Source of the DNA: a virus | Direction: 5' to 3' (one strand) | UHGV virus genome: UHGV-0124909 | DNA length: 23,179 nt | Shown: piece after piece, positions 1-4,774 of the stretch | Layout of the letters: each line of letters begins with the position of its first letter | Position numbering within the stretch: the stretch's first letter is position 1 | Made by a program: the position numbers and the translations under genes | The notes under the pieces: model-generated | Told to the model about the DNA's origin: nothing | The model's database searches: none | Seen by the model: the letters and a program-made list of their open reading frames with translations, nothing else

Positions 1-10
1 AGTTGCCATA

Positions 11-229
11 TCAGTTTTCCTTATACGGATTAATTTTATTGTGCAGTGTGTTGAACGACGCCCATACCACGTCGTTATACAATTCAATAACTGGTTCAAT
101 TATTTTCCCGATTGCCCAGACAAAAATTAGCGGGGATATCGGTATCATCAACACGATAAACAGAATGAGAAACAAAAGTTCTGTCGCTCTACTTTTTCGC
201 GGATATTCTTTTCTGAATAATGTAGGCAC
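11..229 (-). CDS. Hypothetical small membrane protein (72 aa, GTG start)
   Basis: ORF with hydrophobic core LLFLILFIVLMIPISPLIFVWAIG; preceded by the conserved AAAGGAGAGTGA junction (RBS plus upstream stop). Confidence 0.4.
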   Translation of the reverse strand: MPTLFRKEYPRKSRATELLFLILFIVLMIPISPLIFVWAIGKIIEPVIELYNDVVWASFNTLHNKINPYKEN

Positions 230-230
230 A

Positions 231-446
231 TCACTCTCCTTTGTTGCTTCTCAAAATTTTATGCCCTGGCGCAAAAGCACGCGTTTTGTCGACGCTTATT
301 CGCCACCCATCTTTACGTGCCTCTTTTGCACAGCCAGCCCATGACGTACCGATATACTCACCGAAGTCTGGCACTGGATATACACCTTCCGTACACTGGC
401 GGCAGTCACAATAGAGATGCATGGTGTAACTTGCGGCAATAGCCAT
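231..446 (-). CDS. Hypothetical Cys-rich small protein (71 aa)
   Basis: Start MAIAASYTMHLYCDCRQCTEG at the ATG 1 nt after the upstream gene's TGA; AGGAG RBS in the conserved junction; ends in KGE encoded by the next junction. Confidence 0.45.
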   Translation of the reverse strand: MAIAASYTMHLYCDCRQCTEGVYPVPDFGEYIGTSWAGCAKEARKDGWRISVDKTRAFAPGHKILRSNKGE

Positions 447-459
447 ATCACTCTCCTTT
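442..459 (-). repeat. Conserved gene-junction sequence (copy 2 of 3)
   Basis: Exact 18-mer GCCATATCACTCTCCTTT (plus strand) shared with 1104-1121; on the minus strand it reads AAAGGAGAGTGATATGGC, i.e. KGE-stop, RBS and next ATG. Confidence 0.8.
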
Positions 460-834
460 ACCCTGAAGCATGGCGGCGCGGCAGGCATTCCAGCCTCTCA
501 CCTCTGCAATAGCGGCAACAGCATCAACCGCGTACATGCTAAGAGGATTAGGCATTGGTTTTTCTTCCGGTACTACTGGAACGGGTGGAGCGGCGTAGAC
601 CTCAATAATTCCATTATCAATAGGCCATTCTCCATCCTTGAGGTAGTCACTTGTGCCGTCAACTTGCTGTTCTGCAATGTGGAATGCACCTATTGGTTTT
701 GCTTCCAGTGATGCCAGCGCAATCCGTGCCAGCTCTTCCGCTTCTTCTGCTGGCAGTACAACGTTGCTACCAGGTCCGTATGTTTCGCGCCACTGCCTGA
801 TTGTCAGCAGTCGCTCTTTGGTAATAGTGGTCAT
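448..834 (-). CDS. Hypothetical early-left protein (128 aa)
   Basis: ORF MTTITKERLL... with AGGAG RBS upstream; C-terminus KGE* lies in the conserved junction. Confidence 0.55.
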   Translation of the reverse strand: MTTITKERLLTIRQWRETYGPGSNVVLPAEEAEELARIALASLEAKPIGAFHIAEQQVDGTSDYLKDGEWPIDNGIIEVYAAPPVPVVPEEKPMPNPLSMYAVDAVAAIAEVRGWNACRAAMLQGKGE

Positions 835-844
835 GTGTTACTCC

Positions 845-1108
845 TTAACCCGCAGTGCTTTCAACTGATGAGGGGAACAAAATCTTTTCATCAAACCCTG
901 CATTCATATCATGAACAGCAACACACCAATCCATCGACGAACGATTATCAAGAGCCTCCATGATTTCATCCATGCGGCGTAGGTCATACAGGTAAATGCT
1001 TTTATCGCCAATGGTGTAAAAACCAATTTTTTTCGGTGATGGGCAGCGATCAAGAACGTCCTGTAATTCGCTCAACCATGCTTGTTCTTTTTTTGTCAAA
1101 GTTGCCAT
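845..1108 (-). CDS. Hypothetical early-left protein (87 aa)
   Basis: Start MATLTKKEQ at the ATG immediately after the junction AAAGGAGAGTGAtATG; the listed ORF 845..1150 is trimmed to this RBS-supported start. Confidence 0.5.
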   Translation of the reverse strand: MATLTKKEQAWLSELQDVLDRCPSPKKIGFYTIGDKSIYLYDLRRMDEIMEALDNRSSMDWCVAVHDMNAGFDEKILFPSSVESTAG

Positions 1109-1121
1109 ATCACTCTCCTTT
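1104..1121 (-). repeat. Conserved gene-junction sequence (copy 3 of 3)
   Basis: Identical 18-mer to 442-459; a variant (GCACATCACTCTCCTTT) is at 226-242. Confidence 0.8.
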
Positions 1122-1667
1122 GATGCCAATGCCAGCGGCGCGGGAATCATCCCATCGCTTTACTTCTTCACGAATTACGTCAATGCATTCTTTCGAATCC
1201 ATTAGGTAATCTTCATCAAAAAGACGTTCCTGTTCGTTTTCTATCGCAACAATGATTGCTTCAACTAACTTTTGTGCCTGAGAACCACTTTCTAACTCTG
1301 CTATGCGCTTACTCCCATCAGAGATAACACCTTCGTAATACTCACGCTGCTCGTTGAGTTTTGATTTTGCTGCTTCCAGCTCAACGCGCAACTTCCCTAC
1401 CGTTAGTGCAATATCCTCGTTCTCCTGGTCGCGGGATTTGATGTATTGCTGGTTCCTTTCCCGTTCATCCAGTAGTGCCAAAGCAATCTTTGGATTAAAG
1501 GCAGCAATAAATTCAGCGTTGTTTTTCAGAACGTGTTGCGCAATGGCCTGACTACTTAGTCGGACCTCATAACCACGTGCGCCACGGTGTGGTTTATATG
1601 AGTCCCAGTCTCCCCACGTTGCTTTTTCTGCCGCCTCACGCAGTACCTGATAGTCAATCTTGCTCAC
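1110..1667 (-). CDS. Coiled-coil early-left protein (Ea22/Ead-like position), about 185 aa
   Basis: ORF 1110..1688 trimmed to the GTG at 1667, which has an AGGAGG RBS 6 nt upstream. Heptad-rich region [20 protein letters not shown]. Family assignment is tentative. Confidence 0.45.
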
Positions 1668-1864
1668 TGGTTGCCTCCTTTGCGCCACATCGCATTCAGA
1701 TATTTGTTTTGATTCACTGAAGGAAAAGAATTTCTCTTAAGCAATTCCTCTCTCGATGGCATTGGCTTTACGCGTTGGCGAATAATCATTTCTGCCGGAA
1801 GAATGCCGGGATTGTATGCACGTCCTCTCATGGTAAATTCCTCAGTCATTACTGATAGCGCCAT
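1664..1864 (-). CDS. Hypothetical small protein (start uncertain)
   Basis: Downstream part of ORF 1664..1981 that does not overlap the Abc2-like gene; its stop overlaps the next gene's GTG start (GTGA). Confidence 0.3.
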
Positions 1865-2135
1865 AGCGTGAGCGGTAATTACGCAGGCGCGGGTCAATTT
1901 CAGGGAAGTGGGTATATGTGGCTTTGCGGAATGGTCGGATTGATGTCTGGTAAATTCGCTCGCGTTCTTCTTTCTCTGCAAGCCATATACAGTGGCGAAA
2001 TTCCTTTTCCTCTTTCGTTTCCTGCGGTAGAGACATTATTCGATCGTAGTTTTTTCTGAATTTATCCAGCACCTCCGATACGGAATTGCCGGAACAGCGG
2101 CGCGCGTCATCCGCACCATACAAAGGCGCTGGCAT
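1842..2135 (-). CDS. abc2: Anti-RecBCD protein Abc2-like (97 aa)
   Basis: [10 protein letters not shown]...[21 protein letters not shown] matches my recollection of P22 Abc2 in length and sequence; sits in the recombination module next to erf. Confidence 0.55.
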
Positions 2136-2158
2136 AATGGAATCCTTATTTTGCTAAT

Positions 2159-2542
2159 CTAGAAGGGAATTGAATCGTCGTATTCAGGATGATTTTGATG
2201 ATTGCTACTTTGTTGCTGTTGGTTGTTTCCTGAAGTTGCAAATCCAATCTTTGCATTCAGTAATTCAAGAGTGATTGATTGACCATTTTGCCCCTGATAA
2301 ACATCAACCCTGATGTTTTCTCCGGTAATTTCTACAATGCCACCTTCAACCAGAACGCTACGGTAGTAATCCGCTTGCGCTCCCGGCTTGGCAAATACAA
2401 CGGCGCTGTAGTTTGTCCATTCTTTCTTTTTTGTCTGGCGATCGTAATACTGAACGCCAGCACGGATGTTGAATCCGATATTTTCCCCGGCCTGAAACTC
2501 TCTTGCGGGCTTGTTTAGTCTTACAGTAATCGAATGTGCCAT
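2159..2542 (-). CDS. SSB-like single-stranded DNA-binding protein (127 aa)
   Basis: Start MAHSITV overlaps the erf stop (TAATG). OB-fold-like body and C-terminal acidic tip ...EYDDSIPF resembling the SSB tail DDDIPF. Confidence 0.6.
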   Translation of the reverse strand: MAHSITVRLNKPAREFQAGENIGFNIRAGVQYYDRQTKKKEWTNYSAVVFAKPGAQADYYRSVLVEGGIVEITGENIRVDVYQGQNGQSITLELLNAKIGFATSGNNQQQQSSNHQNHPEYDDSIPF

Positions 2543-3147
2543 TAAGCAGCCGCCCCTTCTAATTCGTCTCGTCTGATGTTGTAAACGTCCTGCGCTTTTT
2601 GCTGCTCCGGTGTGCCTTCGAGCATCTTCCACGCTTTGGCGAACGCCTGTTTAAGCTCTTCCACGGTGTTTTTCTGCAATGCTGCGTCAGTGAATGCTTT
2701 TAGAACCTGTTCAGGTGTAGGTGATGGTTTTGATTGCTTTGCTGCTGCGTTCTGCTGATGTTTATGCTCGTCTGTATCTGCATCTTTCGCATCATCAATG
2801 CCGAACAAACCATTGAGGCAATACTTGCGTGCATAAGAGCTTGTAGCTCCCGTAACTTGTGCAGAATCCATTCCTTTCTTGCTTTCTTCCTCTCGTGCAA
2901 GAGCGGTTGCCGTATGGCTGTTTTCGCCATCGGTAATAGTTGCCGTGGCTTTCACGTAATACCGATCACCAATCAACACAACTTCATCGCTGATTGATAA
3001 AAACAGACCATTCAGTAACGGCTTAACGCCTTCAAGAATATCTTCGCAGCTTCTGTATTTATATTTACCGAATGAGTTGTACTGATTCTTTGGCGCGTTC
3101 AGATTCTCCTGAATGGCTGCCAGCCTTGCATAAAATTCTTTGCTCAT
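2542..3147 (-). CDS. erf: Erf-family single-strand annealing recombinase (201 aa)
   Basis: MSKEFYARLAAIQENLNAPKNQYNSFGKYKYRSCEDILEG... closely matches remembered P22 Erf; position in the PL-operon recombination module. Confidence 0.75.
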   Translation of the reverse strand: MSKEFYARLAAIQENLNAPKNQYNSFGKYKYRSCEDILEGVKPLLNGLFLSISDEVVLIGDRYYVKATATITDGENSHTATALAREEESKKGMDSAQVTGATSSYARKYCLNGLFGIDDAKDADTDEHKHQQNAAAKQSKPSPTPEQVLKAFTDAALQKNTVEELKQAFAKAWKMLEGTPEQQKAQDVYNIRRDELEGAAA

Positions 3148-3248
3148 ATGTTTGTTCTCAGAATGGACATGGCCAAAGGAAATAACGCTGATTTAATACT
3201 TCGACTCGGGACAAATTAAGGCATACCCGCATTCCTTCGCGGTCGCCA

Positions 3249-3407
3249 TTATGGCGATACCAGAGAGCTTTCTGCGTGTACATGCGTCTCTGTAACTTGC
3301 TCTCCTTTACTGTGGTTGCAAGTGACATGAATATCTCCTTCGTTACCGATTAATTCTTTCATCTGACGAATGAATTCTTCGTCTGACCAGTTATCTGTAA
3401 AACTCAT
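3249..3407 (-). CDS. Hypothetical small protein at the kil position (52 aa)
   Basis: Start MSFTDNWSDEEF is coupled to the cIII-like stop by an ATGA overlap. No similarity to lambda Kil recognised. Confidence 0.35.
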   Translation of the reverse strand: MSFTDNWSDEEFIRQMKELIGNEGDIHVTCNHSKGEQVTETHVHAESSLVSP

Positions 3408-3574
3408 GGACGGCCTTGTTGTTTCAAAATATCCCAAAGCTTTTCGAGCAAACTTTTCATTCTTGGTTGTTTAAAGTCTGCTCCGGTTAAAATGTTTTTT
3501 CGTGAATGCTGTACCGATAAAATCGGGTTGAAAGGGCGAACCGATGCCGCCCCTGCAATAGCGAACTGTTGCAT
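3404..3574 (-). CDS. cIII: cIII-like regulator (FtsH protease inhibitor), 56 aa
   Basis: MQQFAIAGAAS...LLEKLWDILKQQGRP resembles lambda CIII (MQYAIAGW...); AGGAG RBS 7 nt upstream of the ATG at 3574. Longer listed ORF trimmed. Confidence 0.6.
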   Translation of the reverse strand: MQQFAIAGAASVRPFNPILSVQHSRKNILTGADFKQPRMKSLLEKLWDILKQQGRP

Positions 3575-3640
3575 AGGATGCTCCTTCTGTTTGATTGCAT
3601 AACGAAAACGCCTCGAGTGAAGCGTTATTGGTATGCATAT

Positions 3641-3665
3641 AAAAAGGCCCCCCACATCGGAGGGC
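3641..3665 (-). terminator. Putative intrinsic terminator upstream of cIII (tL-like)
   Basis: Minus strand GCCCTCC-GATGT-GGGGGGC (7 bp, one G.U) followed by CTTTTT. Confidence 0.45.
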
Positions 3666-3760
3666 AAAGAAGATTTCCAATAATCAGAACAAGTCGGCTC
3701 CTGTTTAGTTACGAGCGACATTGCTCCGTGTATTCACTCGTTGGAATGAATACACAGTGC

Positions 3761-3964
3761 TTATTCGCGAGCTTTGAGCATTGCGTCTGCAAACTTATAT
3801 GCAGCGCTTGCTGCATAATTAACAACTCCATCAGAATCATTATCGATAATCGATGGATTGCTAATCATTGCTTGCATAGCCTTTGCCGCGAAGTAATCGC
3901 GTAATGTCGCATCACTTGCCATTTCTGGGCGTTTGATATCTGCTTCATAAAACTCGCACATCAT
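3761..3964 (-). CDS. Hypothetical protein (67 aa)
   Basis: ATGA overlap with the upstream gene; strong RBS GGGAGGTGA. Confidence 0.45.
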   Translation of the reverse strand: MMCEFYEADIKRPEMASDATLRDYFAAKAMQAMISNPSIIDNDSDGVVNYAASAAYKFADAMLKARE

Positions 3965-4257
3965 TCACCTCCCAGAGCCTTGCTGATTGCTGCAAGACCT
4001 TTATTAACAGCTCCATACCATTCTGGATATGTTGTCGTTGTTCTATTTTTGGATTGCTTAAGTAATAACTGAAGTGCTTCGAGAAGGTCAGGTGCTGCCG
4101 CTATTAGATTGGCATCTTCAATACATTGAACTACCTCACAGATTGCAATATACGAACGCCAGCCTGCGCCATTTTCAAGTGAGTCTGCCTGGATTATTTT
4201 AATCTCATCGCCATCCATCATTATTTCCCACTTGCCTTCAGTACCTTTAAATTCCAT
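3961..4257 (-). CDS. Hypothetical protein (98 aa)
   Basis: ORF with a GAGG RBS; intrinsic terminator immediately upstream on the minus strand. Confidence 0.5.
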   Translation of the reverse strand: MEFKGTEGKWEIMMDGDEIKIIQADSLENGAGWRSYIAICEVVQCIEDANLIAAAPDLLEALQLLLKQSKNRTTTTYPEWYGAVNKGLAAISKALGGE

Positions 4258-4278
4258 GTTAGCCTCTGTTGTTTATGC

Positions 4279-4305
4279 CAAAAATAAAGGCCGACTATGC
4301 GGCCT
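4279..4305 (-). terminator. Intrinsic terminator within the PL operon
   Basis: Minus strand AGGCCG-CATAGT-CGGCCT followed by TTATTTTTGG; the hairpin overlaps the stop of ORF 4304..4774. Confidence 0.65.
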
Positions 4306-4774
4306 AGTAGAATACCCAATTTTCTGTTTCTTGGTTGTGTCCAAAGTTATATTCAATATCTGGTGTTGATGTATCAATATTCTTCATCCCATCAACAAGA
4401 GTTGATACAACAGCCAAATCTTGTTTGATTCTCATTAAATGGTATTTCTTCCGGCGCAATAAACTTTCAATGGCAAGTTTCTTCGTTGGGAATGCAAAAG
4501 ATCTTTCTGCATTTTTTGCTACTTTCTTAATTGCATATCTATTTCTCCTTTGTTTCCATTCCTGTAACCACTGATTTGGTGCTGGTTTAAAATTAACAAT
4601 CCAATGCGCAGGAACCAACCATGCATAATGCTCTGTCTGATGAAAAGCTATATATTGAAGTGCGAATATTTTTATCCCATCTTCTTCAACTGTCGCCTGG
4701 AATCTCCAGAAAACAGGCATTCCATCATGTTCAGTTTCTGATTCAGGAAAAGGTACGCTCCATGATTTTGTCAT
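4304..4774 (-). CDS. Hypothetical accessory protein (156 aa), AT-rich
   Basis: RBS GAGGTGAgat-ATG; visibly lower GC than flanking phage genes; terminator hairpin overlaps its stop. No recognisable motif. Confidence 0.55.
   Translation of the reverse strand: MTKSWSVPFPESETEHDGMPVFWRFQATVEEDGIKIFALQYIAFHQTEHYAWLVPAHWIVNFKPAPNQWLQEWKQRRNRYAIKKVAKNAERSFAFPTKKLAIESLLRRKKYHLMRIKQDLAVVSTLVDGMKNIDTSTPDIEYNFGHNQETENWVFY

Follow-up and report, generated by a model that had tools for sequence, protein, structure and literature searches.

A repeated junction in an early-left operon

We analyzed a 23,179-nucleotide (nt) stretch of the virus genome UHGV-0124909 (the window; position 1 is its first letter), a mosaic lambdoid phage or prophage of the E. 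coli/Salmonella group, and concentrated on a short linker that is repeated between small genes near its left end. The exact 18-mer GCCATATCACTCTCCTTT (+ strand) occurs there twice, at 442–459 and 1104–1121, as a first-pass annotation made from the letters alone had reported, and the variant copy described at the same time is also present, at 225–242, with two mismatches (GGCACATCACTCTCCTTT, + strand). The linker is the top-ranked direct repeat in a repeat search of window 1–4400, and 0 of 100 dinucleotide-preserving shuffles of the window reached three matches to the 18-mer (mean 0.02). All genes in this part of the window lie on the − strand, on which the 18-mer reads AAA GGA GAG TGA T ATG GC (AAAGGAGAGTGATATGGC in the exact copies, ...TGATGTGCC in the third). 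Three − strand open reading frames end in K-G-E-TGA, with stops at 1110, 448 and 231, and in each case the next start lies 1 nt past the stop. That this start is an ATG, as first described, holds at 1108 and 446 but not for the third copy, where it is a GTG (229). The junctions and the genes that they connect are:

1104..1142, − strand: linker copy 1, extended; CGCGCCGCTGGCATTGGCATC AAAGGAGAGTGA T ATGGC
442..480, − strand: linker copy 2; CGCGCCGCCATGCTTCAGGGT AAAGGAGAGTGA T ATGGC
225..242, − strand: linker copy 3 (variant); AAAGGAGAGTGA T GTGCC
1..22, − strand: degenerate fourth junction; AAGGAAAAC TGA T ATGGCAACT
1110..1667, − strand: Ead/Ea22-like gene, 185 aa; PF13935, E 3.7e-37
845..1108, − strand: 87-aa gene (MATLTKKEQ...), downstream partner of copy 1; no Pfam family
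448..834, − strand: 128-aa gene with KGE tail, upstream partner of copy 2; no Pfam family
231..446, − strand: 71-aa gene, downstream partner of copy 2 and upstream partner of copy 3; no Pfam family
11..229, − strand: DUF4014 gene, 72 aa, GTG start, downstream partner of copy 3; PF13198, E 1.2e-25

The three junctions thus connect five different genes, and two of the three copies terminate genes outside the Ea22 family. Copy 1 holds the 10-residue tail and stop of the Ea22-like gene together with a Shine–Dalgarno (SD) sequence, AAGGAG, and reaches the ATG of the 87-aa gene after a 1-nt spacer. In copy 2 the 128-aa gene ends in R-A-A-M-L-Q-G-K-G-E-stop and the 71-aa gene begins with ATG; in copy 3 the 71-aa gene ends in K-G-E-stop and the DUF4014 gene begins with GTG. 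Copies 1 and 2 are alike further upstream as well, in register, at the R-A-A codons (CGCGCCGC, 1135–1142 and 473–480). The start of the 128-aa gene uses another, non-repeated junction, TAAGGAGTAACACATG. At the window edge the repeat search found the degenerate fourth copy, which has TGATATGGCAACT in common with 1101–1113 (AAGGAAAACTGATATGGCAACT); there the DUF4014 gene ends in K-E-N-TGA-T-ATG-GCA-ACT, and the next gene (M-A-T...) leaves the window. DUF4014 is followed by a member of the 87-aa MATLTKKEQ family in one IMG/VR locus and in E. coli E10, so that a second copy of the gene at 845–1108 may lie just beyond the window edge.

Since the 71-aa gene has the linker on both sides, it forms a one-gene cassette between direct repeats. 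Together the three direct copies bound two cassettes, one with the 87-aa and 128-aa genes and one with the 71-aa gene alone, and copy-to-copy recombination in this phage could delete or replace either of them. Three direct copies inside 900 bp could also suggest a local tandem duplication of one gene with its junction in this phage, the outcome that the first-pass annotation had set against its own proposal of unrelated genes joined by homology patches. However, BLASTP and BLASTN comparisons of the five flanking genes match just the 12–18 nt junction, apart from one weak BLASTP hit (E 0.05) that pairs the final 18 residues of the Ea22-like protein with those of the 128-aa protein, and in other phages each gene is found apart from the rest, beside different partners. 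These genes are not paralogous; as first stated, they are without similarity beyond the junction or tail, and we rejected tandem duplication, to which we give practically no chance.

In order of transcription, the operon consists of Erf, a 127-aa gene, Abc2, DUF2737, the Ead/Ea22-like gene, the 87-aa, 128-aa and 71-aa genes and DUF4014; the genes of its upstream part on which the following sections draw are:

2542-3147, − strand: Erf gene, early-left operon
1842-2135, − strand: Abc2 (anti-RecBCD) gene, early-left operon

Within the linker, AAGGAG lies 6 nt before the start, and its duplex with the 16S 3′ end (−9.1 kcal/mol) is among the strongest of the 13 operon starts. Junctions with an SD in the coding tail are characterized by complementarity to the 16S 3′ end 5–9 nt before the start codon and by an upstream stop close to the downstream start on a common transcript, features that the linker shares. 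The earlier reading of AGGAG as the ribosome-binding site (RBS) of the downstream gene is correct as a reading of the sequence. Other roles found no support: no promoter- or terminator-like sites were detected on the − strand within window 1–2400, fold energies at the three copies were not better than those of shuffles (z-scores 0.15, 1.06 and −0.75), no inverted repeat or hairpin was found at the linker, and an Rfam scan of the whole window matched no family. We accordingly set aside a promoter or terminator, an RNA structure and a known RNA family as explanations of the linker.

The linker is conserved as a nucleotide sequence in related phages

Related loci were collected in two ways: via the neighbouring Abc2 gene, blind to the motif, which gave 80 loci and, after removal of identical ones, 76 early-left regions (the Abc2-anchored set); and by an exact 18-mer scan of IMG/VR, which gave at least 120 loci. 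The 18-mer proved to be the core of a junction of ∼30–40 nt with the consensus CGCGCCGCTGGCATTCGCATC-AAAGGAGAGTGA-(T/G)ATG. For the most part this junction forms the 3′ end of genes of the Ead/Ea22 family, lambda ea22 among them, but several unrelated genes end in it as well. In both sets the sequence upstream of AAAGGAGAGTGA is very often (CGCGCCGC)TGGCATTCGCATC, encoding (R-A-A)-G-I-R-I-K-G-E, and the G-I-R-I tail is kept at the nucleotide level although the sequence farther upstream is unrelated. On the downstream side the junction reads (T or G)ATG, with TGTG ahead of DUF4014. Copy 1 of the window is the long form, with one mismatch to a 39-nt consensus, and copy 3 has the core only.

In the Abc2-anchored set, a 12-nt core is present in 49 of the 76 regions, among which the window's three copies are the highest number, and 51 of the 52 core copies lie at gene ends, which bears out the expected enrichment of the motif at gene boundaries in related phages. 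KGE is the most frequent C-terminal tripeptide (53 of 585 called genes), and in 51 of these 53 genes KGE-stop is encoded by exactly AAAGGAGAGTGA, synonymous variants being almost absent. A start codon follows 1 nt after the stop in 49 of the 51 linker-ended genes, and the 28-nt consensus is exact in 40 of the 52 copies. The linker is invariant at synonymous and non-coding positions.

This pattern bears on whether the tail is selected as protein. Dydecka et al. (2020, PMC7093339) described a K/R-G-E end, the '+GE' tail, in all Ea22 proteins examined (those of lambda, Phi24B, 933W and P27), despite unrelated C-terminal domains, and gave its significance as unknown; the C-terminal region is the most variable part of Ea22 proteins (PMC10834534). 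The window's own Ea22-like gene (1110–1667, PF13935), which has a conserved N-terminal/coiled-coil part, a variable C-terminal part and a linker-encoded tail ending in IKGE, carries the same feature at the protein level. A '+GE' or GIRIKGE tail selected for oligomerisation, as a degradation tag or for partner binding would be in keeping with this recurrence, and with the longer RAAGIRIKGE tail kept in many Ea22-like proteins. Nevertheless, the codons are invariant where a protein motif would let them vary, the conservation runs past the stop into the spacer and start, and the tail occurs on unrelated proteins whose sole common feature is their operon position. We therefore regard selection for a protein motif as very improbable. 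What the present data add to the published '+GE' end is its reading as the in-frame translation of a nucleotide joint, AAAGGAGAGTGA plus start, which also ends non-Ea22 genes; the joint, rather than a protein motif, explains why Ea22 proteins end in this way.

The 39-nt consensus matched 176 phage records, and its carriers include lambda, HK022, many Stx-converting phages, P22-like Salmonella phages and the P1-like P7. In P7 (L260 1501–1539) the exact 39-mer joins the Ea22-like upf88.3 to upf89.0, and the module has therefore crossed between phage types, into a P1-type phage-plasmid. In lambda the 3′ end of ea22 (L259 1500–1531) reads ...GGCATTCGCATCAAAGGAGAGTGA, with GATC in place of the start codon, and ∼190 nt without a gene separate the linker from ea8.5. 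Two further phage records, Campylobacter phage CJLB-4 (MW057783.1, 48,361 bp) and Xanthomonas phage vB_XooS_NR08 (OQ055246.1), have lambda-type ea22 ends, and the enterobacterial linker, flanked by E. coli phage sequence, is present in contigs attributed to Segatella copri, Collinsella and Xanthomonas pisi (L204, L213, L250, L251); all of these records and contigs are probably contaminated or mis-binned.

Outside this group the sequence is rare. When one genome for each of 185,579 species was scanned, the 18-mer was found 58 times: ∼8 of these matches have enterobacterial phage flanks, and ∼50 lie in unrelated phyla, essentially always as the RBS and ATG start of some gene. Since the scan gave just 58 matches, ∼50 of them chance or generic RBS uses, the enrichment of the linker in phages is lineage-specific. 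The generic uses do show that such a sequence can arise on its own, and each junction might have separately evolved an optimal RBS, stop and start, with neither common descent nor a role in exchange. Other junctions of the window embed the SD in the last codons too; that at 3961–3964, for example, has a different sequence, ...G-G-E-stop with an ATGA overlap, from which it follows that xGE tails can also arise by convergence. As an account of the linker, however, convergence is improbable. The background is tiny (∼50 matches in 185,579 genomes versus 49 of 76 related phage regions), and the copies are identical at positions that have no part in the SD: AAA, the AG that precedes TGA, TGA itself as the stop chosen, the spacer, and the synonymous sites across 12–21 nt of upstream codons. 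The expected spectrum of near-equivalents (AAG GGN GAA, TAA stops, other spacings) is not seen in the related junction set, and lambda keeps the linker without a downstream gene.

One joint connects many unrelated gene partners

For each 14-mer seen at least five times in the Abc2-anchored set (15,209 in all), we counted the distinct left and right contexts. A single context on at least one side is the rule, holding for 95% of these recurrent 14-mers, and ordinary junctions of the same regions always connect one fixed gene pair. The linker ranks first of the 15,209 in context diversity on both sides. Only 12 of the 14-mers have at least nine contexts on both sides, and all come from two joints: ten lie in GGCATTCGCATCAAAGGAGAGTG, with 11–12 left contexts, 11–12 right contexts and 24 combinations in 46 copies, and the other two come from AGCTTCGCAAAGGAG, which forms the upstream portion of a second joint, the runner-up in promiscuity. 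In the window this second joint is:

1664..1684, − strand: second junction type, between the DUF2737 and Ea22-like genes; CGCAAAGGAGGCAACCAGTGA

It encodes K-G-G-N-Q-stop of the DUF2737 gene, and the GTG start of the Ea22-like gene overlaps the stop (GTGA). The KGE joint and the KGGNQ joint thus bracket the Ea22 slot.

A tabulation of flanking genes, as had been suggested along with the shuffling idea, gave the same picture in IMG/VR, where 129 linker copies connect at least 14 upstream with at least 14 downstream protein clusters in ∼40 combinations among the matches listed. The upstream partners are mostly Ead/Ea22-like proteins with differing C-terminal domains, but the 128-aa and 71-aa families, a 64-aa protein and a weakly Mom-like protein of 163 aa are also represented. 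The downstream side includes an HNH endonuclease, whose gene lies directly after the joint in one locus, and many proteins of unknown function. The window's own genes take part in these combinations: the 87-aa gene has a different upstream neighbour in 28 unique contexts, a different gene comes after the window's Ea22 C-terminal region in four, and in two the 128-aa gene stands ahead of the 87-aa gene, the reverse of the window order.

Sequence similarity switches at the joint

If genes have been exchanged at the joint, then similarity between related phages should end there. In the Abc2-anchored set, the ends of high-scoring segment pairs of at least 90% identity are 6.3-fold enriched at the linker and 7.6-fold at the KGGNQ joint, compared with 2.2-fold at other junctions and 0.7-fold in gene interiors. 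Where a pair of loci shares the upstream flank only, similarity stops at +12 to +18, in the spacer or just past the start codon; where the downstream flank only is shared, it stops at −1 to −22.

Alignments show a homology switch at all three window copies, and the window's genes occur elsewhere with other partners, the homology ending exactly at the joint, which agrees with the predicted exchange at these exact boundaries. At copy 1, one locus (L046) is 97% identical to the window over 251 nt upstream and diverges after ATGGCAACTTTG. In two others (L014 and L005) the downstream genes of copies 1 and 2 are shared and the upstream gene is unrelated, and a further one (L142) shares 383 nt upstream of copy 2 and has a different downstream gene. 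The GTG variant with DUF4014 stands behind a different upstream gene in L198. No phage record covers at least 80% of window 1–2400, and neither does any of 5,426 complete E. coli genomes; 3,232 of these genomes have partial matches, and several matches start at 237, 444, 457 or 461, at the junctions.

Breakpoints also cluster inside the Ea22-like gene, at window ∼1360–1380, 1480–1500 and 1520–1540. These intragenic clusters are consistent with a swap of the variable C-terminal domain behind the conserved coiled-coil part.

A probable translation joint that may also serve gene exchange

The anatomy of the joint, its conservation, its many combinations of partners and the fact that homology switches precisely there are direct observations. 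From them we propose, as the probable explanation, that the joint is a translation signal, its SD lying inside the final upstream codons, and at the same time a homology patch for in-register gene exchange. The 18-mer would be the core of a junction module of ∼30–40 nt in the early-left accessory (ea/exo-xis) operon of enterobacterial lambdoid phages. As RNA, the module would place AAGGAG within the last upstream codons and so force the protein to end in Lys-Gly-Glu, and with TGA, 1 nt and a start in succession, the downstream gene would be translated from this SD and probably be coupled to the upstream gene. As DNA, the module, which would mostly be the 3′ end of the Ea22 family spread to other genes, would be identical by descent between unrelated gene pairs and hence serve as a homology patch. 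Homologous recombination within the patch would then swap the gene on one side, plausibly by a phage annealing recombinase (Erf here, Red-beta or RecT elsewhere), and would leave the stop, RBS and start intact, yielding viable recombinants. The first-pass suggestion that such linkers are homology patches for gene shuffling in lambdoid phages thus gains support, with the recombination step itself inferred from the comparison of sequences.

The length of the patch matters for this mechanism. Minimal pairing lengths are 23–27 bp for Red-beta and 31–34 bp for RecA (PMC3945230); given the Red-beta minimum, the 28–39-nt form, which is shared between phages, is long enough, and the bare 18 bp is marginal. 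The enzymatic route would be that of relaxed or short-homology recombination by Rad52-like phage recombinases (Martinsohn 2008, PMC2327257; De Paepe 2014, PMC3945230), which could act on an identical patch of 23–40 nt; genes for Erf and Abc2 lie just upstream in this operon of the window. Unlike the joint, the mosaics in those studies were found beside diverged homology in 50-bp windows, and no discrete repeated exact junction was described (PMC2327257, PMC3945230).

Several results weigh against exchange through the joint. Most directly, 65% of the breakpoints in these regions are intragenic or elsewhere, so that the linker accounts for a minority of the region's mosaicism, and the breakpoint counts are phylogenetically non-independent, uncorrected for shared ancestry. 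The window's own copies agree exactly over 18 bp, under the Red-beta minimum, which the longer Ea22-type form (28–39 nt) alone exceeds. The patch is also largely the conserved 3′ end of one family: with a hidden Markov model of the Ea22 N-domain, 89 of 138 (64%) unique KGE-tailed proteins, about two thirds, belong to the Ea22 family and 49 of 138 are without this domain, and part of the upstream promiscuity is for that reason an exchange of the variable C-terminal domain within the Ea22 family. Finally, the retention of the linker in lambda without a downstream gene shows that it is not always tied to a translational role.

These same results bring in the rival that joints form at random by illegitimate recombination, that those at gene boundaries survive selection, and that the linker is a hitch-hiking Ea22 tail or an RBS scar which guides nothing. 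Besides the breakpoints away from linkers and the preponderance of the Ea22 family, many junctions without shared sequence would fit this view, and the literature argues that most mosaic boundaries lack conserved sequences (PMC3029335, PMC2327257). A scar, however, should stay with one partner, and the linker occurs in ∼24–40 partner combinations that include several non-Ea22 upstream families. Moreover, among the 11,935 pairs formed by 155 unique contexts of ±200 nt, 83% have neither flank in common, and the same 12–28 nt stand between flanks that are unrelated on both sides. One-sided homology, in turn, always stops at nearly the same positions, differing by a few nucleotides at most. For these reasons we consider illegitimate recombination with hitch-hiking unlikely as the source of the linker's distribution.

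A wider extension of the exchange model can be offered only tentatively, and we think it more likely wrong than right by a good measure: the whole early-left accessory region may be a standardised array of cassettes, in which the KGE and KGGNQ/GTGA joints are selected 'sockets' for in-register exchange. Such an array would permit expression-ready single-gene swaps between co-resident phages and prophages via the phage's own annealing recombinase, and, if real, would be a homology-based functional analogue of the integron. Still more speculatively, a nuclease carried on some of the cassettes might cut at the joint, as the HNH gene directly behind it in one locus could suggest.

Relation to known systems

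The proposal that conserved boundary sequences, short stretches of which seven were described, are foci of recombination in lambdoid phages dates from the HK620 genome (Clark, Inwood, Cloutier & Dhillon 2001, as cited in PMC3029335 and PMC2327257), and before that, 'linker' homology was part of the modular theory (Susskind & Botstein 1978, through the same two papers). Exchange directed by boundary sequences has been viewed as an exception and not the rule. The joint resembles these elements in being short, conserved among related phages, flanked by non-homologous sequence, located at gene or module boundaries and marked by a switch of homology. It differs in that boundary sequences, by the description of the citing papers, roughly delimit functional modules, whereas the linker separates single small accessory genes, occurs up to three or four times per operon and is coding tail, RBS, stop and start at once. 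A literature search for the exact linker sequence returned just unrelated primers and constructs, and nothing specific on the joint was found in descriptions of P22-like or lambdoid genomes, a search that did not cover Clark 2001 itself. Since the general concept is already known, the linker is a well-documented example and not a new kind of element.

With translationally coupled junctions the joint shares tight packing, an SD 6 nt before the start, and a stop and start 1 nt apart (in the second joint, the GTGA overlap); ordinary coupled junctions belong to one gene pair, however, while the linker is identical between many unrelated pairs. Similarly, like integron cassettes with their attC sites, the genes form an array of small unrelated single-gene units with a recurring short element and combinatorial content, but the linker has no inverted repeat, hairpin or integrase, is coding and translational, and would be exchanged by homology instead of a site-specific enzyme.

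Lambdoid mosaicism has long been disputed between homologous recombination at conserved linkers and illegitimate recombination followed by selection. For the linker side the joint is a clean, quantifiable case, with 30–40 nt and dozens of gene combinations; because most nearby mosaic breakpoints lie elsewhere, it leaves the general debate unsettled. That the '+GE' tail is the shadow of a nucleotide signal, and not a protein motif, matters for structural and functional work on Ea22. In practice, engineers of lambdoid phages could take the joint as a natural, expression-ready site at which to insert accessory genes.

Besides the two joints, 14-mers that code for I-A-L-A-S-L-E-A-E-P (ATTGCACTGGCATCGCTGGAAGCAGAGCC) in DUF551-like genes, the family to which the window gene at 448–834 belongs, have many contexts in the Abc2-anchored set. 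They are intragenic, and from their sequence contexts may represent another recombination-prone conserved patch.

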